This document shows positions 40,135-64,000 of a stretch of 64,000 nucleotides of DNA, in pieces. Position 1 is the first letter of the stretch, and the number at the start of each line of letters is the position of its first letter. The translations under genes were made by a program, and so were the position numbers. The DNA is from an uncultured Anaerolineales bacterium (GTDB lineage Bacteria; Chloroflexota; Anaerolineae; CG2-30-64-16), in NCBI GenBank assembly GCA_964474695.1, contig CAYYTK010000024.1:2490-66489 (forward strand), read 5' to 3'. The notes beneath the pieces are model-generated. The model ran no database searches. It had not been told where the DNA came from and worked only from the letters and a program-made list of their open reading frames with translations.

Positions 40135-40189
40135 AAGCCGTTACCGACCTTTGGCGGCGCGACGATGAGATGCAGCGCGGTACACGGCC

Positions 40190-41247: not shown

Positions 41248-41282
41248 GGCACAGCGAGTTGAGTATGTTCAGGAATGCAAGG

Positions 41283-41936: not shown

Positions 41937-42099
41937 GGAAAGATGCTGGCCGTCCACGAATGCTGCCCGAATCGCCGGTCGCAAGCATTGTGTATCCGTG
42001 CGAGATTCATGGCCGGCCCCACATCACCACCCTGGGGGCCCGCGCCACGCTGCGTTACCCCGGCGGCTCAGTGACATCCTTGGGCTGCTGGGCCTGATT

Positions 42100-42891
42100 T
42101 CACCGGCCCGCCGCCTGGTAGAATTGGATTCCCTGGCTTTCCATAATGCGACGGTGCCGATCGTCGGGCGAGACGACAACCCACTCCCCTTGCACGTACT
42201 CCTGGTACATGCGGATCTGGCGGATGAGCTCCCCGGCGCTGGGCAGCGTGGCTTTGACCTCGAAGTAGACCGGCATGACTTGCCAGTGGTCGCTCACGAC
42301 GGCCCGCAGCGTGCGCGGATCGGCTGCGCGGCGGTAGACCTCCAGGCCGGTACGACTATCCGCATAGGTGTAGCCGGCCAGGGCCAGCCGGGGCTGGCGC
42401 ACTGCGACATACAGGTCCACGAAGCCGACCAGGAACTTGCTGTCCGTCTGCAGCGGCAGCTCCCACACCACCTTGTCCACCGCGAACAAGGGCCGCGGCG
42501 GCAGCGTCAGCCCCGCATAGCGGCGGCGATACTCGGCCGCCTGCTGCTGGCTGGCGCTGATCAGATCCGGGATGCTCCGTTCAATGGCGGCCCGCTGCAC
42601 CGCGTCGGCGGCATGGATCGTGCTGAGGCCGATCTTTTCCGCCAACGCGGCGCGCGCCGCCCACTCGGTGAGCACCAGCGCCGCCGACGTCTGGTTGACG
42701 ACCGCCTGCGCCTCCTGCTCCACCAGCTGGCGCTCCTCGGCCGGCCAGGCCGAGTCCCAAAAGAGCTCGATGATCACCTGCTCGATATGCTCCGTTAACC
42801 AGGTCAACACGTCATCGTGCGATGCTGTCTTGAGGTCATCATCCAGAAAACCAAAGTGTTGTTGCAGGGTTTGCCCGCGGGGTCGTGCCAT
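42100..42891 (-). CDS. PD-(D/E)XK nuclease-like protein
   Basis: LVGFVDL...YFEVKA...GELIRQIRMYQ; start moved to MARPRG. Confidence 0.7.
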   Translation of the reverse strand: MARPRGQTLQQHFGFLDDDLKTASHDDVLTWLTEHIEQVIIELFWDSAWPAEERQLVEQEAQAVVNQTSAALVLTEWAARAALAEKIGLSTIHAADAVQRAAIERSIPDLISASQQQAAEYRRRYAGLTLPPRPLFAVDKVVWELPLQTDSKFLVGFVDLYVAVRQPRLALAGYTYADSRTGLEVYRRAADPRTLRAVVSDHWQVMPVYFEVKATLPSAGELIRQIRMYQEYVQGEWVVVSPDDRHRRIMESQGIQFYQAAGR

Positions 42892-42923
42892 GTGTTCACT
42901 CCAGTTTGATATCCAACGTTCAC

Positions 42924-43364
42924 TCAGACGTGCGCCGGCAGATAGCGCAAGAAAGCCAGCGCCAGCGCCGCAATCGCCGCGCCGAGATAGAGACCGACCA
43001 CGCCGGGCAGGGGCGTCGCATGTCCGGCGCGCTGCCGGGCGTACAGAAACAGCAGCCCCTGGACGATCACCCCAGCCAGTAGGGCCGCTGGCGCACAGGC
43101 AGCCAACCCGACCGCAAGTTTTCCGTCCGCCGGCCCCATGCCCCCGCCCCACCGCCAGGCGACCACCACGCCGATGAACACGGCGCAGGTCAACAGCAGA
43201 TTGCCTGTCAGCAGCGCGACCGGCCAGGCTGCGACGAACAGCGGCACGGTCAGCCAGTTAGACACGCGCCGTGTCCGGTAGTCCTGCAGCGCGCACGGCA
43301 GCAGCCAGAGCGTCAACACGACGGACCGCAGGAGCGGATCGCGCAGAAAGTCGAGCAAATTCAC
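42924..43364 (-). CDS. cpaA: Prepilin peptidase (A24, TadV/CpaA-like)
   Basis: ALQDYRTRRVSNW and GGMGPADGKL catalytic Asp motifs; hydrophobic. Confidence 0.85.
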   Translation of the reverse strand: MNLLDFLRDPLLRSVVLTLWLLPCALQDYRTRRVSNWLTVPLFVAAWPVALLTGNLLLTCAVFIGVVVAWRWGGGMGPADGKLAVGLAACAPAALLAGVIVQGLLFLYARQRAGHATPLPGVVGLYLGAAIAALALAFLRYLPAHV

Positions 43365-48210: not shown

Positions 48211-49116
48211 TCACCGGACCGGCAGACTGGTCAAGTCTCCGGCCAGGTCCACCAGCTCGGCCAGCACCCAACCGTACTGGTCGCCGGCCACGCAGCAGAC
48301 CTGCACCCAGCGGCCCGCGGCGTCCCGGCCAACCGGCGTCAACCGGCTGCCCGCCGGCAGCGTTGCCAGCACCAGGGTGTCCGTGCCCGGCCCGGCGCGC
48401 ACATTCAGCCCCTGGGCTGGTCCCGGCTTCACCAACACAACGCCGGGGGTCGCCGTGGGCGCCGGCGTGGCCGTCGGCGCCAATGTCGGCGTCGGTGTCG
48501 CTGTCGCTGCCGACGCTGCTGCCGTAGGCGTCATCAACCGTTCCAGCGGCGCCAGGGTCAGCGCGGCGTCGGCCCGGCCTGAAGCCGTCAACAGCGCCGG
48601 GACCAGGTCTTGACTGCTCTCCAGCGCCACCACCAGTTTTCCACCCGCCTGCTCAATGATGGCTACCACCCGCAGGCTCGGCCCCACCAGGCGATTCGCC
48701 TGCCAGACATCCACGCGCTGGCCAGCTAGAAGCAGATCGCCGGGCACGTGCGTCTCGGCCACGGTCATGCCGAGCACCACCGCCTGCGCGTCCGTGGTGT
48801 AGCGCAGCTCCGCGGCCGGGACCGCATACGCGCGCAAGAGCGGGACGCCGGGCAGAAGCTCCAGCCGGGCGAGCCGGCCCACAACCTCGGCCGGATCCGC
48901 GTAGGCCGGCTGAACCACTGCGCCGCGCGGCAGATAGGCGATCTCGATCATGTCGTCCGTGATGGTCGTGTAGGGCGGGATCGCCGTTCGCGCGACCACC
49001 ACGGGGATCGGGTCGATCAGGGCGTGCAGCCGGCCCAGGGTAGTGCGCACCAGAGACAGCGCGGCCAGCAGCGCCAGCAGGCCGGCGACGCCCCGGTACA
49101 GGTTGCGTCTGAGCAT
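48211..49116 (-). CDS. CpaB-like SAF domain plus C-terminal SH3b domain protein
   Basis: VVVARTAIPPYTTIT SAF; PT linker; LNVRAGPGT...GRD...W.QV..YGWV SH3. Confidence 0.85.
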   Translation of the reverse strand: MLRRNLYRGVAGLLALLAALSLVRTTLGRLHALIDPIPVVVARTAIPPYTTITDDMIEIAYLPRGAVVQPAYADPAEVVGRLARLELLPGVPLLRAYAVPAAELRYTTDAQAVVLGMTVAETHVPGDLLLAGQRVDVWQANRLVGPSLRVVAIIEQAGGKLVVALESSQDLVPALLTASGRADAALTLAPLERLMTPTAAASAATATPTPTLAPTATPAPTATPGVVLVKPGPAQGLNVRAGPGTDTLVLATLPAGSRLTPVGRDAAGRWVQVCCVAGDQYGWVLAELVDLAGDLTSLPVR

Positions 49117-49277: not shown

Positions 49278-51923
49278 TCATGGGTGCCGCCATTGGCGGC
49301 GCAGCAGCTTCTGCCGGCGCCGCCGCACGAGCAGAATGGCCAGGATCGTCGCCAACGCCGCGCCTGCGCCGACCAGGGCCGGCGATGCGGTCGCCGCAGC
49401 GCGGAAGTCGGTGACCGTCACCGAGTTCGGGCTGAAGGCGAACAGGTAGTCCTCCACCTCCCCCTCCGGCGCGGGGCCGGTGGCATTAAGTCCATCTGCT
49501 GAACTAAGTCGGAAGCGACCGTAGATGCTGTGGTTCGTGCCCCCGCCAAAGGTGCCGGCCGGCACGTCACAGGTCACGACATGAGTCCCGGTTGCGAATG
49601 TGCCGTCCGGGATCGGCGTCCCGGCCGCATCGCGCAGCACGATAGGTTCCAGTCCGTTGCCGAAGTCCAGCCACGCCTGCACCACCCCAGGGCCGTTGGT
49701 GATGGTGAGCTCCAGGCGGCAGCCGTCGCCATCGGCAGCCAGGCCGTCCGTCCAGCCGCCCGCCGGTGCGTTGGGCGCGGCGAGCCGCACGACGCCGTCG
49801 TCCGCGTCGCCGTCCGCATACTGCCCCGGCTGAGCGCCGGCCTCGGCGGTGACGTTGGCGCCCAGCCGCAGGCTGCCCAGCGGGTGCCAGGCGGGCGTGT
49901 CGCCATCATAGGGAGCCGGCAGGTCGCCGTAGTCGCGCACCGTGGCCACCAGGCCGGCGTCGAGGGTCATGTCGAACTGCGCGGGTACGGCCACGGCGGC
50001 GATCCGGCCGGTGGCCGGGTCAGGATCGCTGTCCAGGGCGCGATCGTCCCCCTGCCAGCGCGGGCTGAAGACGTAGCCCTGCGACAGCGCGAAGCCGATG
50101 CCGTAGACGCCCTGCTCCATGCCGAACTCGTACCAGCCCTCATAGGTAGGCATGCTCTCGATCACGGCGCCGGAGAACGAGTAGAGCGTCACAGTCACCC
50201 CGTCCAGGCCCGGCTCGCCGGCCTCCTGGAGGCCGTCCGCGTCGTAGTCGAGCCACACGAAGTCGCCCAGGCTGCACGGGTCGCCCAGTGGTGCCTGGTG
50301 CAGGCCCGCATCGATCGTGGCGTCATGCTGGCCGGCGACCAGGACGATAGCGGCCGTCCGGCCCGTAGCCGGGTCCGGGTTGCTGTCGCGCGCGGGGTCG
50401 CTGCCCTGACCGGCCGCGCTGAAGACGTAGCCTGGAGGAGTGCTGAAGCCGACTTGATACGTGCCCGCGACTAACCCGGTGAAGCTGTAGGCACCGTCCG
50501 CGTCCGTGACGGTGGTGGCCAACTCCTGGCCCGCACTGTCGTAGAGCGTGACCGTGACGCCGGCCAGGCCCGTCTCGCCGGCGCCCTGCACGCCGTCCAG
50601 GTCGGCGTCGTGCCAGACCCAGTCGCCCAGGCTGGCCGGTTCAGGTGTGAGGGTAGGGGTCGGCGTGGGAACCAGGTTGACGCCGGCGTCCCAGGTGAAG
50701 TCGTCCGCCGCCGGCAGCGTGATGAGCGGGGTGCGGCCGAGCGTGCCGTTGGGAGTGAAGTCGGAGTCGAGCGCATCATTGCCGCCCTGGTCGACCGGGC
50801 TGAACTGCCAGGCGCTGCTCGCCAATTGCAGCTCGACGAAGTACTGCCCGCCGGCCGGTAGCCCGCAGAACTGGTAGCCGCCGCTGCTGGCGGTCGTCGT
50901 CGTGGCCAGCACGTTCGCCGCCGGGTCCAGCAGGCGCAGCGGCAGCCCGGCCAGCCCGCTCTCCCCCTTCTCCTGGATGCCATCCCGGTCTGCGTCGTGC
51001 CACACGAAGTCGCCGAGGCAGTAGGTCGCCGGGGTCGCGGTGGCCGTCGGGGTTGCAGTGGCCGTCGCGGTGGGCGTGCGCGTGGGTGTGAAGGTCGCCG
51101 TCCGCGTGGCTGTCGGCGTCGGCGTGCGCGTCGCCGTGGCCGTCGGTGTGCGGGTCGGCGTGTGCGTTGGCGAAGAGGTGGCGGTAGCCGTCAGCGTCCA
51201 GGTCGGCGTGTAAGTCGCCGTCGCGGTGCGCGTCGGTGTGGGCGTGTTGGTCGGCCCGCTCCCGCAGCACAACAGGTTCTCGACGCTGCACACCACCGGA
51301 TCGCCCAGCACGTTGACGTTGACCCACGATCCCAGGTTGTTCGGCGTGTAGCGGCAATCCGCCTGGTCCGCGTTGCCGCCCACGTCGGTCACCCAGCGCG
51401 CATCCCCGAAGCTGTGGGCGCGCGTCTGCTCGCAGCGGTAGATCTCGATCTTCCAGTTGTTGGTGGCGTCGACCACCGCGTTCAGGTGCCAGGTCACGGA
51501 GCCGCCGGCCGGCACGGTGACCGGGCAGCCGCTGTTCGTGCTGCCGCCGTAGCACTGCGCCCAGCGGCCCCACATGCTGTCGTAGGCCCAGAAGGTGACC
51601 GCCGCGCTGCAGCTGTTGAACAGCTCGATCAGGCCGACCTCCGTATCCGGCGCGAGCGCGGGCGCCTCGCTCAGCAGCGGTGCAGTGGTGCGGTCGCGCC
51701 ACGCCGGCGACACCTGAGCGGCCGCATGGGTCAGCACGTAGGCGCAGTCCTGGCCCGCCGGGTTGACGATCCGTTGCGCAACCACCGCCTGCGAGCCGGC
51801 CGGAACAAGGTCTTGCGCTACGGCTGCGCCCGGGAAGTCCGGAGCAGCGGCCGCGCCGGTGGTCAGGATCATGCCGAGCAGCAGGACACCCAAGATGGTA
51901 AGTGCAGATGGTGTGCGGATCAT
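49278..51923 (-). CDS. Cell-surface protein: three SdrD B-like domains, GEVED domain, PT linker, C-terminal TM anchor
   Basis: Three LGD(F/W)VW.D...DG.Q..GE.GL repeats with DSD motifs; GEVEDY; [15 protein letters not shown]; signal peptide from MIRTP. Confidence 0.9.
51020..51260 (-). repeat. Pro/Thr-rich coding repeat (TPTATAT)n
   Basis: Low-complexity linker inside the SdrD-type protein. Confidence 0.85.
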
Positions 51924-51983
51924 GGCTCCTCCTCCAGGTGCAGGATAGCCTCCGGGGTCAACTGGCCCCGGAGGCCAACTCAC

Positions 51984-53118: not shown

Positions 53119-53997
53119 TCAGAGCGCGTTGATCACCGGCAGCAGCAGCGGCACCAGGATCAGGAACATGAACGGCAGAAAGAAGAACAGCACGGTCGGC
53201 ACGGCCAGCCGGCTCTCCAGCGCCTCGGCCTCGCGCAGCGAGCGGTCCTTGTAAGCAATGATGAGCGTGCGCGCCAGGCCTTCCATCAGCTCCGGCCCGG
53301 CCACGCCGGTGCGCGACGCCTGGTCGATCTGCGCCGCAAACGCCTTGACCGGCGGCAGGTCGTAGCGGTTGACCACCTCGACCAGGACCCCCGCCACGTT
53401 CTCGCGGCTGAAGAGCGGCCGGCCGCTGGTGCGCGCCTCCTCGACCGCCCGCCGCAGCAGGTTGCCCAGCGGCCCGCCGAACTCCGCCGCGCGCGCCAGC
53501 GCCCGGTCGGGTGGGTTGCCGGCGCTCATCTCGGCCGCCATCAGCGCGGCCAGGTCGGGCAGGCTGCGCTGCACCCGCCGGCGCACCGCGTTGCCCTGGC
53601 TGCGCAGGCGCGCGAAGGGCGCGACCGCGCCCAGCAACGCCGCGGCGACGAGCGCAGGCACGCCGGTGACCACGGGCAGCAGCAGGCCCAGGCCGCCAAA
53701 CACGATGGCCAGGCCCCAGATCGCCGCGGCCGAAGGCGCATCGCCGACCAGCAGCAGCCAGCGGCGGTGGGCCTCCACGTCCACCAGCCCGCCCAGCGCC
53801 GGGAAGCGGTTCAGCGCCGCGCCCCCGACCTGCTCGAACGCGTTGCCCTCCGCGCGGCCCAGATAGCCAGCCACGACGGAGCCGGGCGTGCGCGAGAAGG
53901 CGAAATCGGTGCGGGCGGCGAGCAGCGCCACCAACAGGCCGGCGCACAGGGCCGTCCCGGCCACCAGGAGCTGCTGGGTGAGATAGGTAGATGGCAT
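53119..53997 (-). CDS. tadC: TadC / T2SS F-family pilus platform protein
   Basis: LPDLAALM..SAG..ALAR...LG...C-terminal TM. Confidence 0.85.
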   Translation of the reverse strand: MPSTYLTQQLLVAGTALCAGLLVALLAARTDFAFSRTPGSVVAGYLGRAEGNAFEQVGGAALNRFPALGGLVDVEAHRRWLLLVGDAPSAAAIWGLAIVFGGLGLLLPVVTGVPALVAAALLGAVAPFARLRSQGNAVRRRVQRSLPDLAALMAAEMSAGNPPDRALARAAEFGGPLGNLLRRAVEEARTSGRPLFSRENVAGVLVEVVNRYDLPPVKAFAAQIDQASRTGVAGPELMEGLARTLIIAYKDRSLREAEALESRLAVPTVLFFFLPFMFLILVPLLLPVINAL

Positions 53998-53998
53998 C

Positions 53999-54931
53999 TC
54001 ACGCCTCCAGTGCGTCGTTGATCATGCCGTTCAGGAACACGTACCCGAACGCCATCGCCGCGAGCGACGCGCCCGCGACCAGCTGCGCGGTCGGCGCGGC
54101 GAAGCCGGCCCGGATGCTGGGCGAGGAGAGCATCATGCCCAGCACGATGCCCATGATGACCAGCATGGTCAGCACCGCCCCCCGCGCGGCCTCGGCCTTG
54201 GAACCGGCCACCGCCCGCGCCTCCAGGATCGCGGACAGCTCGTCGGCGGTCGTGGTGAACGCCACCGCGAAGCCCGTGCCGCCGGTCTCGGCCAGCCGGC
54301 CGATCTCGTACAAGACCAGGCCCAGCAGCGGCGTGATCTGCATCGCTTCGGCGCGGGCCTTCTCCAGATAGGCGCTGCCTTCCAGCCGCAGGCCTTTCAG
54401 CAGCCGCGCCAGCCACAGCCGCAGGACGCTGCCCTCGGCCAGGTTGCCCACCACCTCCTCGACCGCTTTGAGCGGCGCCTGGGTGACGAGCAACTGCCCG
54501 CCGAGCTGGCTGACGAAGAGCGGCAGGTCGGCCTCGACCGCCAGCCGCGCCTTGCGCCAGCGGCCCTTCAGAAACGTATCGGCCAGGATGTAGCCCAGCG
54601 CGGCCAACCCCAGCGCGGGGATGAGCGGCAGCCCCATCAGCAGCGCCAGCAGCCACGGCGCGACCGCGCCGCCGATCTGCGCGGCCAGGACGAGCCGCCG
54701 CGGCAGTAGGCCCAGCGCGGCGTTGATGCCGGCGGCTTCGGCGTCGGCCTCGGGGGCCGGTTGGACCGCGGCGGGCGCCATGTAGCCCGCCACGACCTGG
54801 CCCGGGCCGCGGCCGAACGACACCCGGCTCGCCACGGCGGCGACCGTGCTCCCGGCCGCGATGGCCAGCGCCAGCACCAGGAGCGGCTGGAGCAGCGGAT
54901 TCCCCAGCAGTCCTCGAATCAACTCTTGCAT
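53999..54931 (-). CDS. tadB: TadB / T2SS F-family pilus platform protein
   Basis: TMs; EADLP.F..QL...A.AEA.....C-terminal TMs; follows the CpaF gene. Confidence 0.85.
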   Translation of the reverse strand: MQELIRGLLGNPLLQPLLVLALAIAAGSTVAAVASRVSFGRGPGQVVAGYMAPAAVQPAPEADAEAAGINAALGLLPRRLVLAAQIGGAVAPWLLALLMGLPLIPALGLAALGYILADTFLKGRWRKARLAVEADLPLFVSQLGGQLLVTQAPLKAVEEVVGNLAEGSVLRLWLARLLKGLRLEGSAYLEKARAEAMQITPLLGLVLYEIGRLAETGGTGFAVAFTTTADELSAILEARAVAGSKAEAARGAVLTMLVIMGIVLGMMLSSPSIRAGFAAPTAQLVAGASLAAMAFGYVFLNGMINDALEA

Positions 54932-54949
54932 AAACAGACCTCCCCCTTC

Positions 54950-55171
54950 TCAGGCCCAGGCCCGGCGCACGGGCCAAGTCAAGATGACGGCCGCGATCGT
55001 CACCCCCAGAATGCCGACGACCGGAACTTCCAGCAGTGTCCCTGTCAGGCAGATGGCCACGGGCCAGACCACTTGCAGGGTCCTGGGGCGCCAGGATGGG
55101 CAAGCCAGCGCCAGCCCGATCGCCGCAGCCAGCAAAATCAGAAACCGATAGACCGTCATTGCTCCTGACAC
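54950..55171 (-). CDS. Small membrane protein
   Basis: 73 aa, largely hydrophobic, lies between cpaF and tadB. Confidence 0.5.
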   Translation of the reverse strand: MSGAMTVYRFLILLAAAIGLALACPSWRPRTLQVVWPVAICLTGTLLEVPVVGILGVTIAAVILTWPVRRAWA

Positions 55172-55198
55172 CTGCCCCCTGATCCCTGACGCCTGCCC

Positions 55199-56443
55199 TC
55201 ACTCCCGCCGCCGGCTCGGCGCCTTGAGCTCGGCCTCGCCCGGCAGCCAGAGCGGCTCCAGCCGCACGTTGCCGCCGGACGTCAGCCCGCCGACCTCCCA
55301 GGCGCCCAGCGCCACCCGCCGTCCCTCGCGCCAGCCGACCTGGACGATCAGGTCGATCGCCTCGGTGAACATCCCTTTGGCCGCCTCCGCGCGCACGTTG
55401 GCGTCGGAGTTCATGATGATGCCGATACGGTGCACCGCGTGCTCCGGCCCGTCGGCGTGGAAGGTGGTCAGGCCCGCGTGGTCGCTCATCATGGCCCGGA
55501 ACAGCGACAGTGCCGCGTCCCCCTTGCGCACCTCGCCGACGATCAGGTGGCTGGGCGCCAGGCGCAGCGCGTCGTCCACGCCGTGCCTGACCTCGTAGGC
55601 CGGCACGGTTGAGCCGGGCGGCGCAGGCCGCGCTTCCAGCGTGGTCACGTTGGGATGCGGCAGCCAGATCTCCTCCGGGTCCTCGACCTTGACGACGCGG
55701 GCGTCCAGCGGCACGCCGTGGCAGAGCGCCGACAGCAGTGTGGTCTTGCCCGTGCCCGTGCCGCCGATGACCATCACCCGCAGCCGGCGGCCCACCGCAT
55801 CCAGCAGCGCATCCATGACCGGCGGGGTGAAGACGCCCCACGCCACGACCTGCGCCGGCGTCACCGGCAGCGGCTCAAAGAGCCGGATCGCCAGCGTCGG
55901 GTAGCCGCCGCCCGGCGCGATGCAGGGGTGCAGGACCTTGACGCGCGCGCCGCCGAAGCCGATCTCCCGGTCGCGCGGCAGCTTGGTGTCCACCGACGGT
56001 GTGGCTTCCGAGCAGGCCCGGCCCTCCGGGGCGAGCAACGCCTCGACGGCTCGCCACACCTCTTCTTTGGTCGGGGCCAGGTATTCCAGCCGCGCAAACG
56101 CCATCGCGGTCTTGCGCCGCGTCCACACCGCGCCGTCGGCGTTGACCAGCACGTCGGTGTACTCGGTGCAGTGCGGCGGGAACAGAGCGTCCAGGAAGCC
56201 CAGGCCGCCGACCCGCGCCACCACCCGGTTGACCATCCCCTGCAGCTGGTTGTTGTCGGGCTGCGGCCCGCCCACCGCGCGCAGCCCGTTGCGCACCGCC
56301 GCCTCGGCCCGCCGGCCTACTTCGGCCCGGTTGCGCAGTTCAGCCAGCGACAGGCTCGACAGCTCCTTGCTGGCGCTCTCGACCACCGCCGTGACCTGCT
56401 CCGGCGTCAGCGCGTTCTGTACCGCTCCCCAGCTCATAGTCAC
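55199..56443 (-). CDS. cpaF: CpaF/TadA pilus assembly ATPase
   Basis: GGTGTGKTT, VEDPEE, LRLAP..LIVGEVR, TTFHA. Confidence 0.92.
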   Translation of the reverse strand: MTMSWGAVQNALTPEQVTAVVESASKELSSLSLAELRNRAEVGRRAEAAVRNGLRAVGGPQPDNNQLQGMVNRVVARVGGLGFLDALFPPHCTEYTDVLVNADGAVWTRRKTAMAFARLEYLAPTKEEVWRAVEALLAPEGRACSEATPSVDTKLPRDREIGFGGARVKVLHPCIAPGGGYPTLAIRLFEPLPVTPAQVVAWGVFTPPVMDALLDAVGRRLRVMVIGGTGTGKTTLLSALCHGVPLDARVVKVEDPEEIWLPHPNVTTLEARPAPPGSTVPAYEVRHGVDDALRLAPSHLIVGEVRKGDAALSLFRAMMSDHAGLTTFHADGPEHAVHRIGIIMNSDANVRAEAAKGMFTEAIDLIVQVGWREGRRVALGAWEVGGLTSGGNVRLEPLWLPGEAELKAPSRRRE

Positions 56444-56451
56444 CTCAAGTC

Positions 56452-56520
56452 AGAAGGATGAAGGCGGAAGGATGAAGAACCGCTAATCTCCTTCAGCCTT
56501 CATACTTCAGCCTTCATCCT
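56452..56520. repeat. Inverted heptamer arrays (AGGATGA/AGGCGGA versus TTCAGCC/TTCATCC)
   Basis: aaggatgaaggcggaaggatgaa...cttcagccttcatacttcagccttcatcct between cpaE-like and cpaF. Confidence 0.75.
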
Positions 56521-57836
56521 TACATGCGTATCCGGATCGGCCCCAGGTGGATCACCCGGCCGGGTCGGGCGGCGTCGGGCAGGATCGGCGGCGGGCCGGC
56601 GAAGAGCAGGTCGCCCAGCGTCTTGGCAGCCCGGCGCACCTCGTCGGACCGGAAGTAGGCCGGCTTGCCCTCATTCGCCGCGGCCTCCACCTGCGGGTCG
56701 TCGGCGATCGCCGCGGCCAGCGACGGGAAGTCGCGCTTGGCGCGGCGCGCCTCGGAGCCCGCGGTCGCCACTTCATTGGGCGACAGGGTGCTCTGGCGCA
56801 CGCCGTTGACCACCAGGTGGATCGCCTCCGGCGGGATGCGGTGCTGGCCCGCCATCACGTCGTGGATCACGCGCGTGCCCTCGGCCGCGGCCAGCACCCC
56901 CGGCACGTCGGGCCGCGCCACCAGCACCAGGGTGTTGGCCGCGCTGAGCGCGGCCGCGGCCAGCTCCTGCGCCGAGACGTCGAAGATCACCGGCACGAAG
57001 CCGGCCTGCGCGGCCGTGTAGGCCAGGCTGCCCAGCGCCTTCGGCCCGGAGAGCGCCTCCAGGTTGTAGTTCATCAGGCTCATCAGGTCGGGGAACCCGG
57101 CCAGCAGGCTGACGCCGTGCACGTTGCGCACGCAGGCGCGCAGGCCGTCCACGGTCGGGTTCGTGGTCCAGGCGACCAGGTTGGGCTCCGGCGCGTTCAG
57201 CCCCGCCATCAAGGGCAGCGGGTCGGGCGCGCCGAGGCCGACGAGCAGCGCGGGCAGGCGGCGAGAAGCGGCTTCCAGCGCCAGCGCCAGGGCGAGGGTG
57301 GACTTGCCCACCCCGCCCTGCGGCGACCACACCGCGATGGCCCGCCAGCCGATCATGGCCCCGCCCGGGGACTGGAACGGCAGGAACGCGTCCCGGCCGC
57401 CGGGGTTCAGGCTCGCCTGGCGGCGCAGCAGCACTGCGGCGTAGATCTGCCCGGCGAGCGCAGTCAGGTTGACCTCGCCGACCAGCGCCTCCTTGACGCA
57501 CGGCAGCCCGCGCACCGCCGCGACCTGGTTCTCCGGCACGTTGGCGGGCAGCAGCACGTAGCAGACGCCGGGATACTCGCCGAAGATATCCTTCAGCTCG
57601 GTCGGGCCGCTGAAGACCTGGCCCTCGATGACCGCGGCTTCGGGCTGCATGGCGAGCTTGGCGCGCGTGTCGTCCGCGCTGGTCGCCATGGCCAGCACCT
57701 GGAAGCGCGCGTCCTTGACCAGCAGGCCGTAGAGCGCCTGGGCGCGCGCCGGCTCGCCCGCCACCAGGATCGTGACGGGCCGCTCGCCGGGGATCGGGCC
57801 GGCCGCCGGGGCCGGCCGCGTGAAGCCCCACGTCAT
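56520..57836 (-). CDS. cpaE: CpaE/TadZ-like receiver plus ParA/MinD ATPase
   Basis: N-terminal receiver-like domain; WSPQGGVGKST deviant Walker A; VIFDVS. Confidence 0.8.
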   Translation of the reverse strand: MTWGFTRPAPAAGPIPGERPVTILVAGEPARAQALYGLLVKDARFQVLAMATSADDTRAKLAMQPEAAVIEGQVFSGPTELKDIFGEYPGVCYVLLPANVPENQVAAVRGLPCVKEALVGEVNLTALAGQIYAAVLLRRQASLNPGGRDAFLPFQSPGGAMIGWRAIAVWSPQGGVGKSTLALALALEAASRRLPALLVGLGAPDPLPLMAGLNAPEPNLVAWTTNPTVDGLRACVRNVHGVSLLAGFPDLMSLMNYNLEALSGPKALGSLAYTAAQAGFVPVIFDVSAQELAAAALSAANTLVLVARPDVPGVLAAAEGTRVIHDVMAGQHRIPPEAIHLVVNGVRQSTLSPNEVATAGSEARRAKRDFPSLAAAIADDPQVEAAANEGKPAYFRSDEVRRAAKTLGDLLFAGPPPILPDAARPGRVIHLGPIRIRM

Positions 57837-57850
57837 GGTCGCCTCCTGCG

Positions 57851-58852
57851 CTATTTGCCGGCCCTGCCGGGGGTGGGCGTCGGCGCCGGCGTCGGCCGGG
57901 CGTGCTCCACGTCCGCCGCGAGGTCCGCCAGCGAGAGCCCGCTGGTCGTGTACGGCTCGGCGTGCTCCGGCGCCAGCACCAGGGTGAAGGACGCGTCGGT
58001 CGCGTTGAGCGCGGCCAGCAGCTCCACCGGCACCAGTAGGCGCTCGATGATCTGCGGGCGCTGCGCGTCAGCGGCAGCCGCCCCACCCGGCGCCTTGCCC
58101 CCGGCGAGCAGCCCCAGCGTGTCCGAGACCGGCACGGTCGTCGTGATCATCTGATAGGTGATCGAGATCGGCTTGGTGCTCGCGGCGAGTACGATCACGC
58201 CCTCGCGCAGGTTTGTGGCGGTCGTCGGCGAAGAACTCGACGCGGCGGGCTGCGCGGCGAGCAGGCCGGTGTTCGACTTGCCCTGGCCGCCGCTGACCGT
58301 TGCGGAGGCCGTCACGGGCGTGTAGGGCCGCGCCTGGAACTCCGGCGGCACGTAGAGCACCCGCACCCCTTCCAAGAGCGCCTTGGCGTAGACGGTGCGC
58401 ACGGGGGCCGCGATCACGCCCGGCTGGATGTCCGCCGGGTCCTGCGTCTGCCCGGCCAGCGTCGCCACCACGCCTACGGTCATGCCGGGCCGCAGCAGGC
58501 CGGCCAGGCCGGTATCGGCCTTGACCTGCACCGCGATGCCCCGCTCGTCCGGCTTGAGGCTCACGGCCGGCCCTAAGTGCCGGGCGGTCACCGGCTCGCC
58601 CGCGAAGCGCACCACCGCCAGCGACTGGCCCACCAGCGCCGCCGGGTCGGCCAGCGCGTCGGCCGGCGCCTGGCTGGCCGGCAGCGTCGCGGTCGTCAGG
58701 TCGGACGCGGCCAGCGCCAGGCCCGCGCCCAGGTCGCGCGCGGCCACGACCACGGTCTTTTGCGGCTCCTCTTTCGGCCACAGCACCAGCGCCAGCAGGG
58801 CGCAGGTGATCACGCCCAGGGCCAACGGTAGGCCCACTCCTTTTCTGCGCAT
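57851..58852 (-). CDS. cpaB: Flp pilus assembly protein CpaB/RcpC
   Basis: TM; VVVAARDL.AG..L SAF; ERGIAV...GL..L.PG..V.V; VLYV. Confidence 0.9.
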   Translation of the reverse strand: MRRKGVGLPLALGVITCALLALVLWPKEEPQKTVVVAARDLGAGLALAASDLTTATLPASQAPADALADPAALVGQSLAVVRFAGEPVTARHLGPAVSLKPDERGIAVQVKADTGLAGLLRPGMTVGVVATLAGQTQDPADIQPGVIAAPVRTVYAKALLEGVRVLYVPPEFQARPYTPVTASATVSGGQGKSNTGLLAAQPAASSSSPTTATNLREGVIVLAASTKPISITYQMITTTVPVSDTLGLLAGGKAPGGAAAADAQRPQIIERLLVPVELLAALNATDASFTLVLAPEHAEPYTTSGLSLADLAADVEHARPTPAPTPTPGRAGK

Positions 58853-58864
58853 CTTCCTCTCCTT

Positions 58865-59113
58865 TCAGTCGGCAGCCGCCCCGGGGGCAGCCGCCTCAAC
58901 GGGCTGGCGCGCGGCCAGCGTCGCGGTCACCGCCGCACGGGTCGTCCAGCGGGCGTCGATCAGCTCCTCGCCCTCGTACAGCAGCGCCACCACCGGCATC
59001 TCGCCCGGCAGCGCCTGCAGCGCCGCCAGCACCGCGGCCCCCTGCTGCGGCTGCCCCAGGCCCGGCAGCGCGGTGGCCGGCCGGCCTGTGTCACGGGATC
59101 TCTGTGCGGACAT
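58865..59113 (-). CDS. Small hypothetical protein
   Basis: 82 aa; AGGAGA SD; in operon. Confidence 0.5.
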   Translation of the reverse strand: MSAQRSRDTGRPATALPGLGQPQQGAAVLAALQALPGEMPVVALLYEGEELIDARWTTRAAVTATLAARQPVEAAAPGAAAD

Positions 59114-59144
59114 CTCCTCGCTCCTCCTACTGGGTGCTGACGTG

Positions 59145-59849
59145 TCAGCGAATGCTGACCCGGATCACGCACGGCTCCGGGTAGTTGCCGGTGCGATCCA
59201 CGGCGGTCAACCGGAGCTGGTAATCGCCGCGCGGCACCGTGCGCGTGTTGAACTCGATCAACAGGCCGTCCTGCACCGCCGCGTTCGACCGGTACAGCAT
59301 CGTCCAGCCCTGGCCGTCGGCGGACAGCTCGCCCTTCCAGTACTCCTGGTTCGGGATCGCGGCGGTCCCGACGATGTTCCACCAGCCGGCCTTGCCCGCC
59401 GTCGTTATTGAGGCAATCTTCACGTCGCCGCGCGGGCAGCTCAGGACCGCGAACTTGACCGGTTCCCCGGCGTTCAACCCGCCGCCTCCGCCGGCGCCCA
59501 GGCTCAACTTGGGCAGCGCCGGCAGGCCTGGCAGGGCGGGCGTGACCGTGACCGGCGCCGTGGCCCACCAGCCCGGCGTCGGCGTGATCGTGGCCGTGGG
59601 CGTCGGTAGCGGCTGATAGGCCAGACCGTCCACCGCGGCCGGCGGCCGGGCGAACCCGCGGCTGGCGATGGCGGCCAGTCCGACCAGGATCGCCAGCGCG
59701 GCCAGCGCGAGCAGGATCACGTCAATGCGCAACCGCCACGGCGCGCGTGACCGCACCGCCGTCCCGCCATCAGAACTGATCGCACTGTCGCCCCAGCCCA
59801 CCGTCTCCGCGTCTCCCTTTCTCCCCATCTCCCCTGCTCCCCCGCTCAC
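59145..59849 (-). CDS. Membrane-anchored protein with a C-terminal Ig-like domain
   Basis: TM; PT linker; GTA..P..YW....W...G.L..FNTRTVPRGDYQLRL.AVD..GN. Confidence 0.7.
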   Translation of the reverse strand: MSGGAGEMGRKGDAETVGWGDSAISSDGGTAVRSRAPWRLRIDVILLALAALAILVGLAAIASRGFARPPAAVDGLAYQPLPTPTATITPTPGWWATAPVTVTPALPGLPALPKLSLGAGGGGGLNAGEPVKFAVLSCPRGDVKIASITTAGKAGWWNIVGTAAIPNQEYWKGELSADGQGWTMLYRSNAAVQDGLLIEFNTRTVPRGDYQLRLTAVDRTGNYPEPCVIRVSIR

Positions 59850-62800
59850 ACCACGATCTCCCCCAACTGCGCCACGATCTCATCGCGCGTCGGGGCCGGC
59901 ACGTCCAGCAAGAGCGGCTGGATGTAGACCGGCTCCACCTGCGCCCGGTCGGTCGTGTAGCCCAGCTTGACCACCGCACGCGCCACCGGCATCGAGGCCA
60001 GGAAGCGGCGCCACGGTTCGTCCACGAACCCCTTCTCCGAGCGGGCCAACGCCGCGATCATGGCGTCGCGATCCTTGGGGTTCTTCAGGTTGGCCACCAC
60101 CATGTTGTTGCACGACGACAGGATGCCGGTCGGGATCAACGACGGCGACTGGGTGATCAGGTGCAGCCACATGCCGTACTTGCGCGCGTCGCGCCACCAG
60201 TTGGTGAGCTGCTCCGAGACCGACACCCCGCCGCCCGTCTCCTCGTCCGCGCCGGTGTCCAGGCCGGAGAGGATCTTGTTGGCCTCCTCGAACACGATCT
60301 GGATGCGCGCGTCCCCGGTGACCCCCAGCTCGTCGCGCTGGATCACGGCGTCGTTGTAGAAGTGCCACGCCGCCCAGCCCAGCAGGAACGCCTTGGAGAA
60401 GTCGTCCAGGAACTTGCCGCCCTCCAGGATGGCGATCCCCCAGTCGCCGGGCACGACCGTGTTGATGTCGATGGCGTCCAGGCCCTCGGCGTACTGCCGC
60501 GCGGCCTGGCCCTGCACCAGCGGGTGCAGCCGAAACAGGATGCCTTCCAGCACCCCGCGCAGCGTGGTGTCGCGCTCCGGCACGCCGCTCAGCTTGGTCT
60601 CGACGTCGCCGTAGAGGTCGCCCAGCCCCACCACCTGCGAGCGCGCCACGGCCAGCTGCTGGCGGGCTGGCGCGGGCAGCGCCGCAAGCCGCGTGCCCGC
60701 GGGGTGGCCGATCAGGACGGACTCGTCCGGCCGGACGACGCCCCACACCTTGTCCCGCCGGCACTCCGGGTCGTCCACCAGCACCCCGGAGCCCAGGTAG
60801 ACCCGGCGCAGCGCCTCGCGCAGCTCCGGGATCTGCCGCCGGACGCCCGCGCGCGCCACCGTGCCGAAGAAGTCGCAGAAGATGCGCCACTGCACCTCCG
60901 GCGGGATGTAGCGGCCGATCTGCAGCGGGTTCCAGCGCAGCGGCCGTACGCCGCCCGGCGACAGATGGCGGATCTCCACGTGGCCCGCCAGGCCCGGCGC
61001 GTTGAGCAGCTTGCGCCAGCCCGCGCCGAAGTCGAGCACCACCGTGCGCAGCCGCCAATGCAGCGTGGTCTCGTAGACCATCCGCTCCGCGGCCACCGAC
61101 TTCCCGAAGCCGGTGTCACCCGCGAACAGCGTGTGGAAGTGCCGGTCGCGCGCCAGGCGCAGGGGGGCCGTGGTCAGGTCGGCGGTCTCCGGGCTGACCT
61201 GGTGGCCGAGCACCACCTCGCCGGGCAATTCTGGATAGAAGCCCAGCGGCGGCAGCTTCTCCTGGATGGTGACCGCCGTGCCCTCCTCGAACAGGTTGGG
61301 GCAGGTGTAGGCGGCCAGCATCGCCGGGGTCAGCAGCGTCCCCCACTTCGACCACAGGAGGCCGATGCCGAACGGATCGCCGTCCGGCTCCAGCGACGGC
61401 CGGAACGCCAGCGCGTGCTGGCGCAGCGACTCGTCCGCCGGCACGGTCAGCACCGGGGTCGGCACGCCCGGCCCGTGGAACGACTGCGGCACCAGCGCCT
61501 GGGCCGCGCGGCTGCCCTGCTCGCCGACGAACATCAGCGCGGTGGTCAGGAAGCCGCCCTCGTGCGAGGCGGTGTTGAGCAAGGACTCCAGGCCGCGCGC
61601 GATCTCGGTGAGCCGGATGGCGACGTCGTCTTCGGTCTGCCAGCCGCGGGAGATCGACAGCCCCGGCACGATGCCCGCGGACAGGCCGCCGGAGAAGGCG
61701 TGGCCGCCCGACATGGCGAGCGCCTGGCCCGCGGTGATCCCCTCACCGTGGGAGCGGCTGGCCTGTTCCGAGCGGGACACCGAGCGCCCCTCCGACCACC
61801 CCTCAGAGACCGCCTCGCCCCACGATTCGGAGTCGGCGCTGCCGTGCGTGGCGCTGTGCGAGCTGGATACCGAGCTGAACGTGCCCCGGCTGCCGCTCAC
61901 CGAATCCGCGCTGCCCCGGCTGGTCGCCCAGCCGGCGGTGTCCGCGGTGCCGCGCGTATCCGCCGCGCCGCGGGTGTCCGCGCTGCCCCGCGTGTCGGCC
62001 CAGCCGCGCGTGTCCGCCGTGCCCCAGCTCTCCGAGGTCGTGTCGGAGCTCGATCCGCCCGTGGTGTGACTGGAGCTTTGCGAGCCGCCGGTCGACTGCG
62101 CCACGCCGGATGAGTCGGTGTGCCCCGTGCTGCCGCTGACGCCGGAGCTGGTGGAATCCGCGCTGCCGGTCGACTGCGCCTGGCCCGTGCTGGCCGAGGC
62201 GGAGGCGCCCCAGGTCGTGCCCTGGCTCTCGGCCGTGCCGGATGAGTCGGCGTGGCCGGTGGACTGGCCGGTCTCGGTGCTACCGCTCTGGCCGCTGCTG
62301 GCGCCCGCGGTCCAGCCGTGGCTGTAGCCCGCGCTGGCGCTCGCCACGCCGGGCAGCCCTGCGCTGACGCCGCCCGAGACGGTGTCCGACTGGCCCTGGC
62401 TCTCGCCGCTCGACCAGCCCGAGCTCTGCGCCGACGACTGGGTCGCGCTGTCGGTTTGCGACTGGCTCACGGTCGTGCCGGCCGAGCCGCCGCTGCTGAC
62501 GCCGACGCTGGCGCCCTGCGAGGCGGTCTGGCCCGTCGAGTCGGTGTGCGCCTGGCCGGACGACCAGCCGCTCGCCTGGCTGTCGGACTGGCCGCTGGAA
62601 ACCGTGCTGCCCCAGGAAGAGCCGCTGGTCTCGGTGTCAGACCAGGAGCTCCCCTCGCTGTGCGCGACGCCGGTGGCGTGGCTGTCGGTGTGGCTGCCCG
62701 AATCGGTGTGGGCCGTGCTGTCGGTGTGGGCCACGGAGTCGGTGTGCGCCTGGCTCTCGGTGTGCGCGCCGGAGACGGTCTGCGCGGCGCTGTCGGTGTG

Positions 62801-63808
62801 GCCCCAGCCCGCGCTCTCCGAGACGCCGCTGGAAGTGCCGACCGAGTCGGTGACCGCCTGGCTCTCGGTGTGCGCGGTGCCGTGGCTCTCGGTCCGGCCC
62901 ACGCTGTGGCCCCACGACTGCCCCTCCCCCTCGCTCCACCCCTGGCTGACGCTGTCCGCGCTGGAATGCGCGGTCGAGTCGGAGCGGCCGGCGTTGGCCG
63001 CATAGGCGTTGGAGAGGGCCGCGGCCAGCGGGATGGCGATGGAGAAGCCCAGGCCGATGTTGCCGCGCTGGCGCGAGGCCACCTGGCTCGCGTAGCGCGC
63101 CATCTGGACCAGCGCGCCGGTGATCTCCGGCCGCGGCACGTGCGCGGAGGTGACCTGGAACACGAAATCCTCGCGCAGCTTGGCCAGGCCCCGCAGCAGG
63201 TTCTCGCCCTGCTGGCTCAGCAACTCGTCGTCGGCGATCCCCAGGGCCCCGTCGCGGCCCAGCCCCTTCTTGGCCAGCCGCGGGTCGGGGTGGCCCAGGA
63301 TCGCCAGCATGCGCAGCCGCTCCATGCGCTCAATGAGCAGGCGGATCCGCCGGATGTCAGCGGGGATGAGCTTCGACTGGGGGTAGTTGGCCAGGGTCGC
63401 CTCGACCGCGGCCATGCGCCGGCGGGCCTCGCCGGCCGCCGCCGCCTCGGTGAGCGCCTCCGCGGCCGCGCCGTAGAACTGCGCCACGCCCAAATGCTCC
63501 GGTGCGAACGCGCCCAGCGCGGTGTAGCAGAAGTCCACGTCCGCGTTGTAGAGGCCGCGCAGCGCGGCCCACTGCTTGCCCAGCATGTCGGGGTCGTCGC
63601 GGGTCTCCAGGGGCAGGTAGGCCAGCTCGCGGAAAGTGACGGCGCGCACCAGCTCCCGGCCGCCGGCAGCAGCCAGCCGGAACCAGAAGTAGTGCAAGCA
63701 GCCCGCCGCAAAGCGCCAACCGCTCTCCACGACCCGAAATTCCACGCCCACGCTCTCCCCCCGTCCTTTCAGGCTGCCGACAACGCCGGCCGGTTTGTTG
63801 GCCCCCAC
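59846..63808 (-). CDS. HerA/VirB4-like ATPase with a ~475-aa Ser/Gly/Thr-rich insert
   Basis: Walker A FAGDTGFGKS (61097-61120), Walker B IVFEEANK, RDARKYG..LITQSP; low-complexity insert at 61637-63064. Confidence 0.85.
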   Translation of the reverse strand: MGANKPAGVVGSLKGRGESVGVEFRVVESGWRFAAGCLHYFWFRLAAAGGRELVRAVTFRELAYLPLETRDDPDMLGKQWAALRGLYNADVDFCYTALGAFAPEHLGVAQFYGAAAEALTEAAAAGEARRRMAAVEATLANYPQSKLIPADIRRIRLLIERMERLRMLAILGHPDPRLAKKGLGRDGALGIADDELLSQQGENLLRGLAKLREDFVFQVTSAHVPRPEITGALVQMARYASQVASRQRGNIGLGFSIAIPLAAALSNAYAANAGRSDSTAHSSADSVSQGWSEGEGQSWGHSVGRTESHGTAHTESQAVTDSVGTSSGVSESAGWGHTDSAAQTVSGAHTESQAHTDSVAHTDSTAHTDSGSHTDSHATGVAHSEGSSWSDTETSGSSWGSTVSSGQSDSQASGWSSGQAHTDSTGQTASQGASVGVSSGGSAGTTVSQSQTDSATQSSAQSSGWSSGESQGQSDTVSGGVSAGLPGVASASAGYSHGWTAGASSGQSGSTETGQSTGHADSSGTAESQGTTWGASASASTGQAQSTGSADSTSSGVSGSTGHTDSSGVAQSTGGSQSSSHTTGGSSSDTTSESWGTADTRGWADTRGSADTRGAADTRGTADTAGWATSRGSADSVSGSRGTFSSVSSSHSATHGSADSESWGEAVSEGWSEGRSVSRSEQASRSHGEGITAGQALAMSGGHAFSGGLSAGIVPGLSISRGWQTEDDVAIRLTEIARGLESLLNTASHEGGFLTTALMFVGEQGSRAAQALVPQSFHGPGVPTPVLTVPADESLRQHALAFRPSLEPDGDPFGIGLLWSKWGTLLTPAMLAAYTCPNLFEEGTAVTIQEKLPPLGFYPELPGEVVLGHQVSPETADLTTAPLRLARDRHFHTLFAGDTGFGKSVAAERMVYETTLHWRLRTVVLDFGAGWRKLLNAPGLAGHVEIRHLSPGGVRPLRWNPLQIGRYIPPEVQWRIFCDFFGTVARAGVRRQIPELREALRRVYLGSGVLVDDPECRRDKVWGVVRPDESVLIGHPAGTRLAALPAPARQQLAVARSQVVGLGDLYGDVETKLSGVPERDTTLRGVLEGILFRLHPLVQGQAARQYAEGLDAIDINTVVPGDWGIAILEGGKFLDDFSKAFLLGWAAWHFYNDAVIQRDELGVTGDARIQIVFEEANKILSGLDTGADEETGGGVSVSEQLTNWWRDARKYGMWLHLITQSPSLIPTGILSSCNNMVVANLKNPKDRDAMIAALARSEKGFVDEPWRRFLASMPVARAVVKLGYTTDRAQVEPVYIQPLLLDVPAPTRDEIVAQLGEIVV
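61934..62767 (-). repeat. Two 5 x 18-bp coding repeat blocks (AHTDSx and GxADTR)
   Basis: AHTxSx x5 at 62678-62767; GxADT(R/A) x5 at 61934-62023. Confidence 0.9.
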
Positions 63809-63984
63809 CGAGGCCCCCGCAGGGCGTCCGCCCCGCCGGCCTTCACGGCCTCATACGTCTCGAAGTCCACCAGCACCGCCACCGGCACGCGGCCCTCGGC
63901 GGTCACCAGCAGCACCGGCTGTTTGTCGTCGCAGACGCGCATGAAGGTCGCCTCCAGGGCCGCCTCGGCCTCGTCTACGGTCAT
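63769..63984 (-). CDS. Phd/YefM-family antitoxin-like protein (start may lie beyond the window)
   Basis: TV.EA.A.L....RV..D.QPVLL...G.PVAVLVDFETYE; the frame stays open to the window edge. Confidence 0.7.
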   Translation of the reverse strand: MTVDEAEAALEATFMRVCDDKQPVLLVTAEGRVPVAVLVDFETYEAVKAGGADALRGPRWGPTNRPALSAA

Positions 63985-64000
63985 CGTGATCAGCGGGATC

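Follow-up and report, generated by a model that had tools for sequence, protein, structure and literature searches.

What does a cell build from an operon in which the genes of a Tad pilus follow that of a large ATPase whose family has a name and no function? The question is raised by a 64,000-nucleotide stretch (the window) of contig CAYYTK010000024.1 from an uncultured sludge bacterium of the Anaerolineales, in which positions 63808 to 53119 hold such a set. A preliminary description of this DNA had read it as part of a 45-kb transfer region of a mobile element. We conclude that the locus is the core operon of a monoderm Tad (type IVc) pilus of a distinct subtype and that its first gene encodes a HerA-clade ATPase of the NCBIfam family NF033849. 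We describe gene content, fold class, synteny and distribution, and from these we infer a function: with a probability of roughly 0.5, this Tad subtype has a built-in translocation module, the most likely substrate of which would be DNA, with the direction left between import and donation.

Gene calls were guided by the G+C content of third codon positions (GC3) and annotated by Pfam, and transmembrane (TM) segments were predicted. The whole set is encoded on the minus strand. From the window edge downward, the open reading frames (ORFs) are as follows.

63769 to 64000, minus strand: small Phd/YefM-like ORF, 5' end truncated by the window edge, 40-nt overlap with the ATPase start
59846 to 63808, minus strand: 1320-aa ATPase, NCBIfam 'serine-rich protein' (NF033849)
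59145 to 59849, minus strand: single-TM protein of 234 aa whose C-terminal domain is beta-rich, overlapping the ATPase stop by 4 nt
58865 to 59113, minus strand: 82-aa ORF with no assigned function, conserved solely in the closest relative, L001
57851 to 58852, minus strand: CpaB/RcpC with SAF and RcpC domains and an N-terminal TM segment (Pfam RcpC 2.9e-8, SAF 9.4e-7)
56520 to 57836, minus strand: TadZ/CpaE-like ATPase of the ParA/MinD family (sub-cutoff profile matches and synteny)
55199 to 56443, minus strand: CpaF/TadA pilus ATPase (Pfam T2SSE 1.5e-21, 76.9 bits against a cutoff of 24.9)
54950 to 55171, minus strand: 73-aa protein with two predicted TM segments, homologs in L001, L081 and L082
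53999 to 54931, minus strand: TadB-like platform protein with four predicted TM segments (assigned by synteny and TM count)
53119 to 53997, minus strand: TadC platform protein (Pfam T2SSF 7.7e-7, 29.6 bits against a cutoff of 25.2)

Intergenic distances in this operon range from -40 to +76 nt, and no terminator-like site was found on the minus strand between its genes. Given the tight packing and the lack of an internal terminator-like site, 63808 to 53119 is a single operon. The RcpC match reaches 34 bits against a cutoff of 28.8, and CpaB/RcpC was found in 56 of the 80 loci that we collected around ATPase relatives. The TadZ/CpaE-like protein matched CbiA weakly, just below the Pfam cutoff (E 4e-5, 24 bits against 25.4), and NCBIfam CpaE_hom_Actino at a sub-cutoff E of 2.3e-9; it is syntenic in 54 loci. 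The TadB-like protein has no Pfam match and is kept between CpaF and TadC in 50 loci. Neither Pfam nor NCBIfam matched the 234-aa protein, homologs of which occupy the equivalent position in 11 loci. The Phd/YefM-like ORF matched PhdYeFM_antitox below the cutoff (E 7e-4) and has a counterpart at the same position, with 65% identity, in the ortholog L081.

The preliminary description had placed all of its Tad genes co-oriented downstream of the ATPase. They are all present and lie downstream of it in transcription, but a second CpaB with an SH3 domain, the A24 prepilin peptidase and the pilins lie outside 53119 to 63808. That description had also called the pilus secretin-less. No scanned ORF of the window matched the secretin family (RcpA), as it had said, but the absence is not peculiar, because it is expected in monoderms, including monoderm Chloroflexota (PMC6668835); the missing secretin thus does not count against Tad membership.

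The first gene product matched NF033849 ("ser_rich_anae_1, serine-rich protein") over its full length with 1085.1 bits against a cutoff of 650; NCBIfam names the family and attaches no function to it. The protein consists of an N-domain (residues ~1 to 280), a low-complexity linker of Ser, Gly, Thr, His and Asp (~280 to 700, 420 aa), and a HerA-clade P-loop domain (~720 to 1320) with Walker A GDTGFGKS at residue 897. Walker A and the Walker B 'EEANK' are invariant across the family. Pfam returned no match to the ATPase at E<=0.01, DUF87 and HerA_C included, and the VirB4-type family AAA_10 reached 13.8 bits against a cutoff of 27.5 in the Walker A region only. When we searched Foldseek with an AlphaFold (AF2) model of the C-domain (pLDDT 79), the top 45 matches were HerA-type proteins (SIR2-HerA, HerA-NurA, TdpA, DndH-C and Sulfolobus HerA; TM-scores 0.4 to 0.55), the best at E 2.5e-14 to 1e-12; the coupling protein TrwB followed at rank 46 and VirB4 (4ag5) at rank 48. 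In the sequence searches, phmmer against PDB found HerA/DUF87 at E 2e-4, NCBIfam HerA models scored 18 to 33 bits against cutoffs of 800 to 970, and the CedD model matched the window ATPase at E 2.4e-4 and that of L060 at 5.8e-7 (20 to 29 bits against a cutoff of 600). Since the Foldseek ranking and the sequence searches agree, the modeled domain places the ATPase in the HerA clade of the FtsK-HerA superfamily, nearer to HerA than to VirB4. The label 'HerA/VirB4-like' in the preliminary description is correct for the superfamily, but HerA is the nearer clade. No gene for NurA, the partner of HerA, was found.

The three-part architecture is kept in 63 full-length relatives, in which linkers measure 194 to 674 aa, and homologs range from 1,050 to 1,660 aa. 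We rejected a transmembrane hairpin in the ATPase, which had been proposed as the DNA channel: in the 63 family members, the flanks of the linker are only weakly hydrophobic, with Kyte-Doolittle maxima of ~0.9 to 1.5 and 0.2 to 1.3. The Ser-rich region is better read as a disordered tether, and FtsK has a comparable one. The linker (window positions 60700 to 62950) carries HTDS/ADTRG-like repeats. Several assemblies break within it or have truncated gene calls there: it marks the end of contig L001, and the C-domain is all that many database entries contain.

We found 240 representative clusters of NF033849-type ATPases at E<=1e-30 among 1.84 billion, and 202 relatives among species-representative genomes, nearly all from the Chloroflexota class Anaerolineae. 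Carriers include complete Caldilineaceae chromosomes, the cultured Anaerolinea thermolimosa (1161.5 bits against NF033849 for the Anaerolinea ATPase), Bellilinea caldifistulae and Thermanaerothrix daxensis, and a metagenome-assembled genome (MAG) of Litorilinea aerophila. Of the 57 loci in which 4.5 kb or more of sequence follows the ATPase gene, 50 have co-oriented cpaB-tadZ-cpaF-tadB-tadC within 6 kb of it. The identity of the ATPase to the window protein correlates with that of CpaB, CpaE, CpaF, TadB and TadC (r 0.72 to 0.94), which shows that the ATPase is co-evolving with these five genes. One Anaerolineales MAG (L066, L069, L070 and L071) holds four ATPase-Tad operon copies with 97 to 98% protein identity on separate contigs, and three other MAGs (L001/L002, L024/L031 and L048/L050) hold two copies each with 65 to 73% identity; these may be duplications, co-resident elements or strain mixtures.

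A clostridial branch of the family comprises 88 clusters. In PLSDB, full-length members occur on two plasmids only: pRUMAL01 of Ruminococcus albus 7 (420 kb, typed "mobilizable, MOBP"; ATPase 1615.6 bits against NF033849) and pB6464 of Alkaliphilus (436 kb, typed "non-mobilizable"; 1116.3 bits). Both are typed without a mating-pair apparatus and have no recognized type IV secretion system (T4SS). The neighborhood on these plasmids contains a primase, SSB, a small membrane protein, the serine-rich ATPase, CpaB-like and TadZ-like proteins, CpaF, TadB, TadC, Flp, A24 and TadE. At L169, a chromosomal clostridial locus, the ATPase is likewise linked to Tad genes, and a cell-wall hydrolase is encoded upstream. 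A spread to Verrucomicrobiota, Akkermansiaceae and Armatimonadota/Armatimonadetes (L004, L028 and L034) was set aside, because 69 to 72% G+C and 87 to 91% DNA identity to Anaerolineales loci indicate that these are probably mis-binned Anaerolineae. No ATPase relative was found in the phage collection or in IMG/VR, and a prophage or virus origin was rejected on that ground.

A polytopic membrane protein of ~190 aa, matched by no Pfam or NCBIfam family, is encoded directly upstream of the ATPase in 65 of the 80 loci, and in relatives it is preceded by genes for secreted or anchored proteins. The window counterpart of these genes would fall beyond base 64000. This membrane protein is a better candidate for the channel than the ATPase itself. 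The ortholog L081 is 87 to 90% identical in DNA right to the window edge and extends ~7.6 kb past it; going upstream, it has the Phd-like ORF, a gene resembling g438 (listed below), the membrane protein and further unknowns, and then unrelated TIR/PNP and HTH genes. Positions 1169 to 3102 of L081 hold a defense-like TIR-PNP_UDP pair and, on the opposite strand, an excisionase-type HTH_17 ORF, a possible edge of a mobile region. The g438 paralog adjoins the ATPase upstream in the window's clade and lies 2 to 8 kb upstream in others (L081, 6691 to 7632; L002, 6389 to 7402).

A Pfam scan (E<=0.01) that covered the ORFs of the 20 to 64 kb interval, apart from a few small or ambiguous ones at 39 to 42 kb, found no VirB4, VirD4/TcpA, VirB6, VirB8, TcpC, relaxase, integrase, lytic transglycosylase or cell-wall hydrolase. 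This agrees with the preliminary description, which had recognized no VirB6/VirB8/TcpC-like, VirD4 or lytic transglycosylase gene and had supposed that missing parts could lie beyond the window. In L081, no T4SS gene was found by Pfam in the ~7.6 kb upstream of the window edge. There is no tRNA gene in the window.

The remaining Tad genes and a block of DNA-processing genes lie further downstream on the same strand.

49278 to 51983, minus strand: 901-aa surface protein with three SdrD-B repeats, GEVED, and N- and C-terminal TM segments (Pfam SdrD_B 4e-94)
48211 to 49116, minus strand: CpaB paralog with SAF and C-terminal SH3_3 (Pfam SAF 1.9e-9, SH3_3 3.7e-9)
42924 to 43364, minus strand: TadV-type A24 prepilin peptidase (Pfam Peptidase_A24 7.5e-8, 33.2 bits against a cutoff of 26.5)
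31433 to 31582, minus strand: Flp pilin, 49 aa, predicted cleavage TEG|DMVE (homology to Flp of L063, L074 and L078)
31001 to 31399, minus strand: TadE-like pseudopilin (Pfam TadE 6.8e-6)
30441 to 30850, minus strand: TadG-like pseudopilin, start approximate (Pfam Tad 2.6e-7 within ORF 30441-31391)
29826 to 30404, minus strand: 192-aa protein (g192) with one TM helix, conserved after tadG in 12 to 13 loci
28559 to 29875, minus strand: 438-aa coiled-coil protein (g438) with a region like a winged helix-turn-helix (wHTH) and a C-terminal PD-x(n)-ExE-type motif (family alignment)
28040 to 28438, minus strand: 132-aa protein (g132), conserved in 28 loci, no family match
27261 to 27728, minus strand: SWIM zinc-finger protein (Pfam SWIM 1.9e-8)
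26297 to 27082, minus strand: Rad52/Erf-type annealing protein with an ExoX-like C-terminal motif (Pfam Rad52_Rad22 and ExoX-like_C; PHROG Erf-like single-strand annealing protein 1e-18)
25134 to 26126, minus strand: DnaG-type primase, zinc ribbon and part of the catalytic region (Pfam, PHROG, TIGR01391)
24240 to 24998, minus strand: RadC, JAB domain (Pfam RadC 2.1e-37)
23386 to 24354, minus strand: Cas4-like PD-(D/E)XK exonuclease (Pfam PDDEXK_1 2.3e-10; PHROG exonuclease and Cas4 matches)
22946 to 23503, minus strand: 185-aa protein (g185), conserved across loci, no assigned function
21651 to 22949, minus strand: SWIM and AAA(+) ATPase, AAA_5/MoxR-like (Pfam SWIM, AAA, AAA_5)
20169 to 21638, minus strand: 489-aa protein (g489) with an HExxH motif and a vWA/MIDAS-like C terminus (alignment motifs, weak vWA matches)

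The genes from flp through tadE, tadG, g192, g438, g132, SWIM, Rad52, primase, RadC, g185, the Cas4-like gene and SWIM/AAA to g489, the final gene of the conserved block, are collinear in many metagenomic loci at 28 to 92% protein identity. Our 80 ATPase-seeded loci end ~10 kb past the ATPase, and we therefore assessed linkage to Rad52 with loci seeded on Rad52. An initial count of the Rad52 module in 0 of 80 ATPase loci was an artifact of locus ends, and the Rad52-seeded loci reverse it: TadE lies upstream of Rad52 in 10 of the 14 with at least 5 kb upstream. In compact loci, cpaF-tadB-tadC (L128 and L131) or tadB-tadC (L145) run straight into the DNA block. The ATPase-Tad operon and the block are also linked in L083, on the same contig as L002, and in L084. 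A diverged second copy in the same MAG (72% ATPase and 61% Rad52 identity) has the full arrangement on one 172-kb contig, and each of the two copies has its own Rad52 block. The check proposed in the preliminary description, co-occurrence of the ATPase, Tad and the Rad52 module, thus found them collinear across diverged genomes.

Within the DNA block, the primase matched PHROG DNA primase at 1.5e-25 over residues 14 to 323 and dnaG TIGR01391 at 3.9e-11. From its sequence, the 132-aa protein is suspected to be an SSB-like OB fold. The consensus motif PD...ExE of g438 is suggestive of a restriction-endonuclease-like fold and recalls HerA-nuclease pairs; profile searches of g438 against PDB sequences gave weak MarR-type and coiled-coil matches only. 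A relaxase, Rep or integrase hidden in g438 or g489 was considered and rejected, since such searches returned coiled-coil, MarR-like and vWA matches alone. MoxR/vWA pairs are usually chaperone-like or conflict-system modules. After the pair found here, the other strand (within 19811 to 22949) has a small WGR-domain protein and a DUF4190-like ORF.

The flp gene has its own ribosome-binding site, with a terminator-like hairpin upstream at ~31640 to 31670, and the window Flp is 100% identical in L085 and L087. A pattern search of the window for the classical Flp motif (G-xxxx-EY) returned nothing, and Flp was detected by homology only. The pilin and the two pseudopilins have the predicted motif (R/E)G|D(M/L)V(E/W) rather than the classical G|xxxxEY, and this unusual motif is common to the Anaerolineae Flp genes found.

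In relatives, the ~21 kb of cargo between the Tad core and the pilin/DNA block is missing or replaced; in the window it comprises the SdrD-like adhesin, the CpaB-SH3 paralog, metabolic genes and a low-GC stretch. The 901-aa SdrD-B protein is variable cargo between tadC and the peptidase gene, present in two related loci only; in Caldilineaceae loci, the A24 gene directly follows tadC. From the A24 gene to flp, 31700 to 42900 looks like an insertion hotspot. It encodes a CrtC-like lipocalin, HIT, Zn-ADH, an APH-type kinase and an ATPase_2/DUF234 protein, and its lower-GC stretch at 38.8 to 42 kb holds small unannotated ORFs. The A24-flp spacing is ~0.6 kb in L098 and L108, and the gap in L084 holds AlbA_2/HATPase_c_4 and HTH_31 instead. 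The ORF at 42100 to 42890 (minus strand), just downstream of A24, has no family match, and its C terminus reads like PD-(D/E)XK (GFVDLYV ... VYFEVK); its true start probably lies further inside, given that the annotated one overlaps A24. Contigs from sludge metatranscriptomes have matches in the ATPase, in the Tad core, in flp and in the DNA block, with hardly any over the cargo at 31.7 to 39 kb. Because they come from relatives, are unstranded and possibly contain DNA, we do not regard them as proving that the genes are expressed or co-transcribed.

The far end of the window differs in composition, with 56% G+C over 1 to 19 kb and 65 to 73% in the remaining part. This low-GC island (~56%, against ~72% elsewhere), 1132 to 19164 on the plus strand, has five very large genes. 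One encodes a 1241-aa DruA (PADLOC 2e-127) with an SspF-like region fused to it; the other four encode an SspG-like protein (483 aa), a mad8/HerA-like protein (1619 aa), an AAA_22 protein (1994 aa) and a protein without assignment (436 aa). It looks like a composite defense locus. The island appears to be a lineage-specific insertion, because L090 aligns with the window only down to ~19423.

How might these parts work together? If the substrate is DNA, the ATPase would form a hexameric ring, dock on its membrane partner through the N-domain and the long flexible Ser-rich tether, and pump DNA across the cytoplasmic membrane. The Tad pilus would give contact with DNA or with another cell, and the linked set of nuclease, annealase and SSB-like proteins would process the DNA. 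By analogy with Ups/Ced or with Tad-dependent transformation, import followed by recombination is slightly favored, a leaning that comes from the nuclease, annealase and SSB-like genes in cis. Donation, as by TdtA or TraB, is nearly as likely, given the megaplasmid occurrence, the diverged copies in one genome and the variable cargo.

Several observations weigh against a DNA-moving Tad subtype. FtsK-HerA relatives such as EssC and VirD4 move proteins. The model of the ATPase N-domain (pLDDT 58) has no PDB fold match (best Foldseek E 0.065), and we identified no DNA-binding domain in the ATPase. In the window, the ~21 kb described above separates the Tad core from the pilin/DNA block, and the ~4 kb after A24 in Caldilineaceae genomes yielded neither pilin genes nor a DNA block. 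In two Firmicutes loci (L167 and L168), the ATPase stands alone among glycolysis genes without Tad genes. Finally, the Anaerolineae/Chloroflexota tad cluster (rcpC-tadZABC) has been published as an adhesion/aggregation pilus (PMC4877987, PMC7332563, 10.1101/2025.08.19.671072).

The main rival is an ordinary adhesion/aggregation Tad pilus with the ATPase and its membrane partner as accessories, which might export or anchor the large secreted and adhesin proteins or act in assembly or retraction; the DNA block would be a functionally unlinked neighbor. The role given to this pilus in the literature, the protein-moving EssC and VirD4, and the Caldilineaceae loci without an adjacent block all fit, as do the secreted, Cys-rich and SdrD-like surface proteins encoded beside the ATPase. 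We consider this explanation a serious rival but less likely, because the nearest structural and sequence relatives of the ATPase are all DNA-acting enzymes of the HerA type and because the collinearity of pilin genes and DNA block recurs in loci with 28 to 70% protein identity, with SSB and primase in another phylum, which is hard to attribute to chance.

The model of the preliminary description keeps DNA as the substrate and goes further, with a mobile element's transfer region in which the donor's Tad pilus pulls cells together and the ATPase 'hairpin' is a DNA channel that replaces the T4SS. The absence of recognized T4SS genes, the two megaplasmids typed without a mating-pair apparatus that carry the family beside primase and SSB, and the two diverged copies in one MAG, each with a Rad52 block, are in its favor. 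The variable cargo and the adjacent defense island add a mobile-element flavor, and TdtA and TraB are precedents for single-ATPase donors (PMC5365140). Against it, ~53 kb of sequence yielded no relaxase, integrase, Rep, tRNA or att site; in complete Caldilineaceae genomes the ATPase-Tad locus sits on the chromosome; neither IMG/VR nor the phage collection contains the family; and the place of the unsupported TM hairpin is taken by a conserved, dedicated membrane protein. Any element ends would lie outside the window, where L081 has the HTH_17 ORF. The 'transfer region' claim was not borne out, and we regard the model as quite improbable.

It is very improbable that the ATPase, the nuclease-like g438 paralog and the Phd-like ORF are an anti-phage HerA-type defense that merely sits beside Tad: anti-phage HerA proteins are the best non-self sequence models for the ATPase, HerA-nuclease pairs are common in defense and defense genes are near (TIR/PNP in L081 and the island at 1 to 19 kb), but the PADLOC and NCBIfam matches are confined to the C-terminal motif block and far below cutoff, so that a known defense system was rejected, and the 50/57 synteny and co-evolution with Tad across two phyla are unlike a hitch-hiking cassette.

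Returning to a Tad subtype that moves DNA, we put forward tentatively, at somewhat less than even odds, a wider proposal: that the NF033849 ATPase, the polytopic membrane protein and Tad make up a hitherto unrecognized, T4SS-independent DNA translocation machine of monoderms, a bacterial counterpart of Ups/Ced or TraB/TdtA with its own Rad52, exonuclease, SSB and primase set, found in Anaerolineae and Clostridia on chromosomes and megaplasmids. Both groups are abundant in sludge, digesters and guts, little is known of how they exchange DNA, and for want of a T4SS many of their large plasmids are typed "non-conjugative". Should this Tad subtype move DNA, it would be a new route of horizontal transfer missed by CONJscan- and MOB-type tools, it would give a function to a catalogued, unexplained protein family, and it would bring to two further phyla the combination of type IV pilus and HerA-like pump seen in archaea and Thermus. 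Even if DNA is not moved, the locus is a Tad subtype of its own, and four or more of its conserved components are unstudied. It is widespread and uncharacterized, and cultured carriers exist (R. albus 7, Anaerolinea thermolimosa and Litorilinea aerophila).

Which known systems does the locus resemble? Like the monoderm Tad loci of Chloroflexota and Actinobacteria, it has CpaB/RcpC, a TadZ-like protein, CpaF/TadA, TadB, TadC, Flp, TadE/G and A24 and lacks a secretin. It differs from the published ones in that a HerA-clade ATPase heads the operon, with polytopic membrane and secreted proteins in addition, and in that the pilin genes are joined to a recombination/replication block. In published Tad descriptions, we found no mention of a HerA-like ATPase, a membrane partner or a collinear DNA block, and no description of the ATPase-Tad association in the literature covered, which does not include all journals. 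Cutibacterium acnes linear plasmids carry a tad locus beside putative DNA-transfer genes, and the authors raise a functional link (PMC5696575); unlike the present locus, they encode recognizable T4SS parts (FtsK/TraB-like, VirB4 and TcpC homologs), and no NF033849 member was found on them. Tad-dependent transformation has been described in Micrococcus luteus (PMC4322843).

Among single-ATPase systems, TdtA of Thermus thermophilus transjugation is a HerA-like, hexameric, membrane-associated ATPase that pushes DNA out without a T4SS; its gene adjoins a nuclease gene, and DNA enters through a type IV pilus-based apparatus (PMC5365140). TdtA differs from the NF033849 ATPase in its size (~64 kDa), in having no Ser-rich tether or N-domain, and in lying outside any pilus operon, on a 14-kb integrative and conjugative element with a recombinase and tRNA att sites, unlike here. 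Streptomyces TraB, as summarized in PMC5365140 and PMC5696575, is one FtsK/HerA-superfamily ATPase that suffices for double-stranded DNA transfer in filamentous monoderms with no relaxase or T4SS; it is of the FtsK clade, carries TM helices, recognizes clt sites by means of a C-terminal wHTH, and works with no pilus. In the Ups/Ced system of the Sulfolobales, pilus contact, the HerA/VirB4-like ATPases CedB and CedD, and the membrane proteins CedA and CedE import DNA without a classical T4SS (PMC11868833, PMC9905601). This system differs in being archaeal, with ups and ced at different loci; TM segments and an N-domain like that of VirB4 are present in CedB and CedD, whereas the N-domain of the window ATPase has no fold match, and no conjugative pilins of the CedA1 type were seen here. 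Its likeness to the present locus lies in the combination of parts, a type IV pilus together with a HerA-clade ATPase and a polytopic membrane protein.

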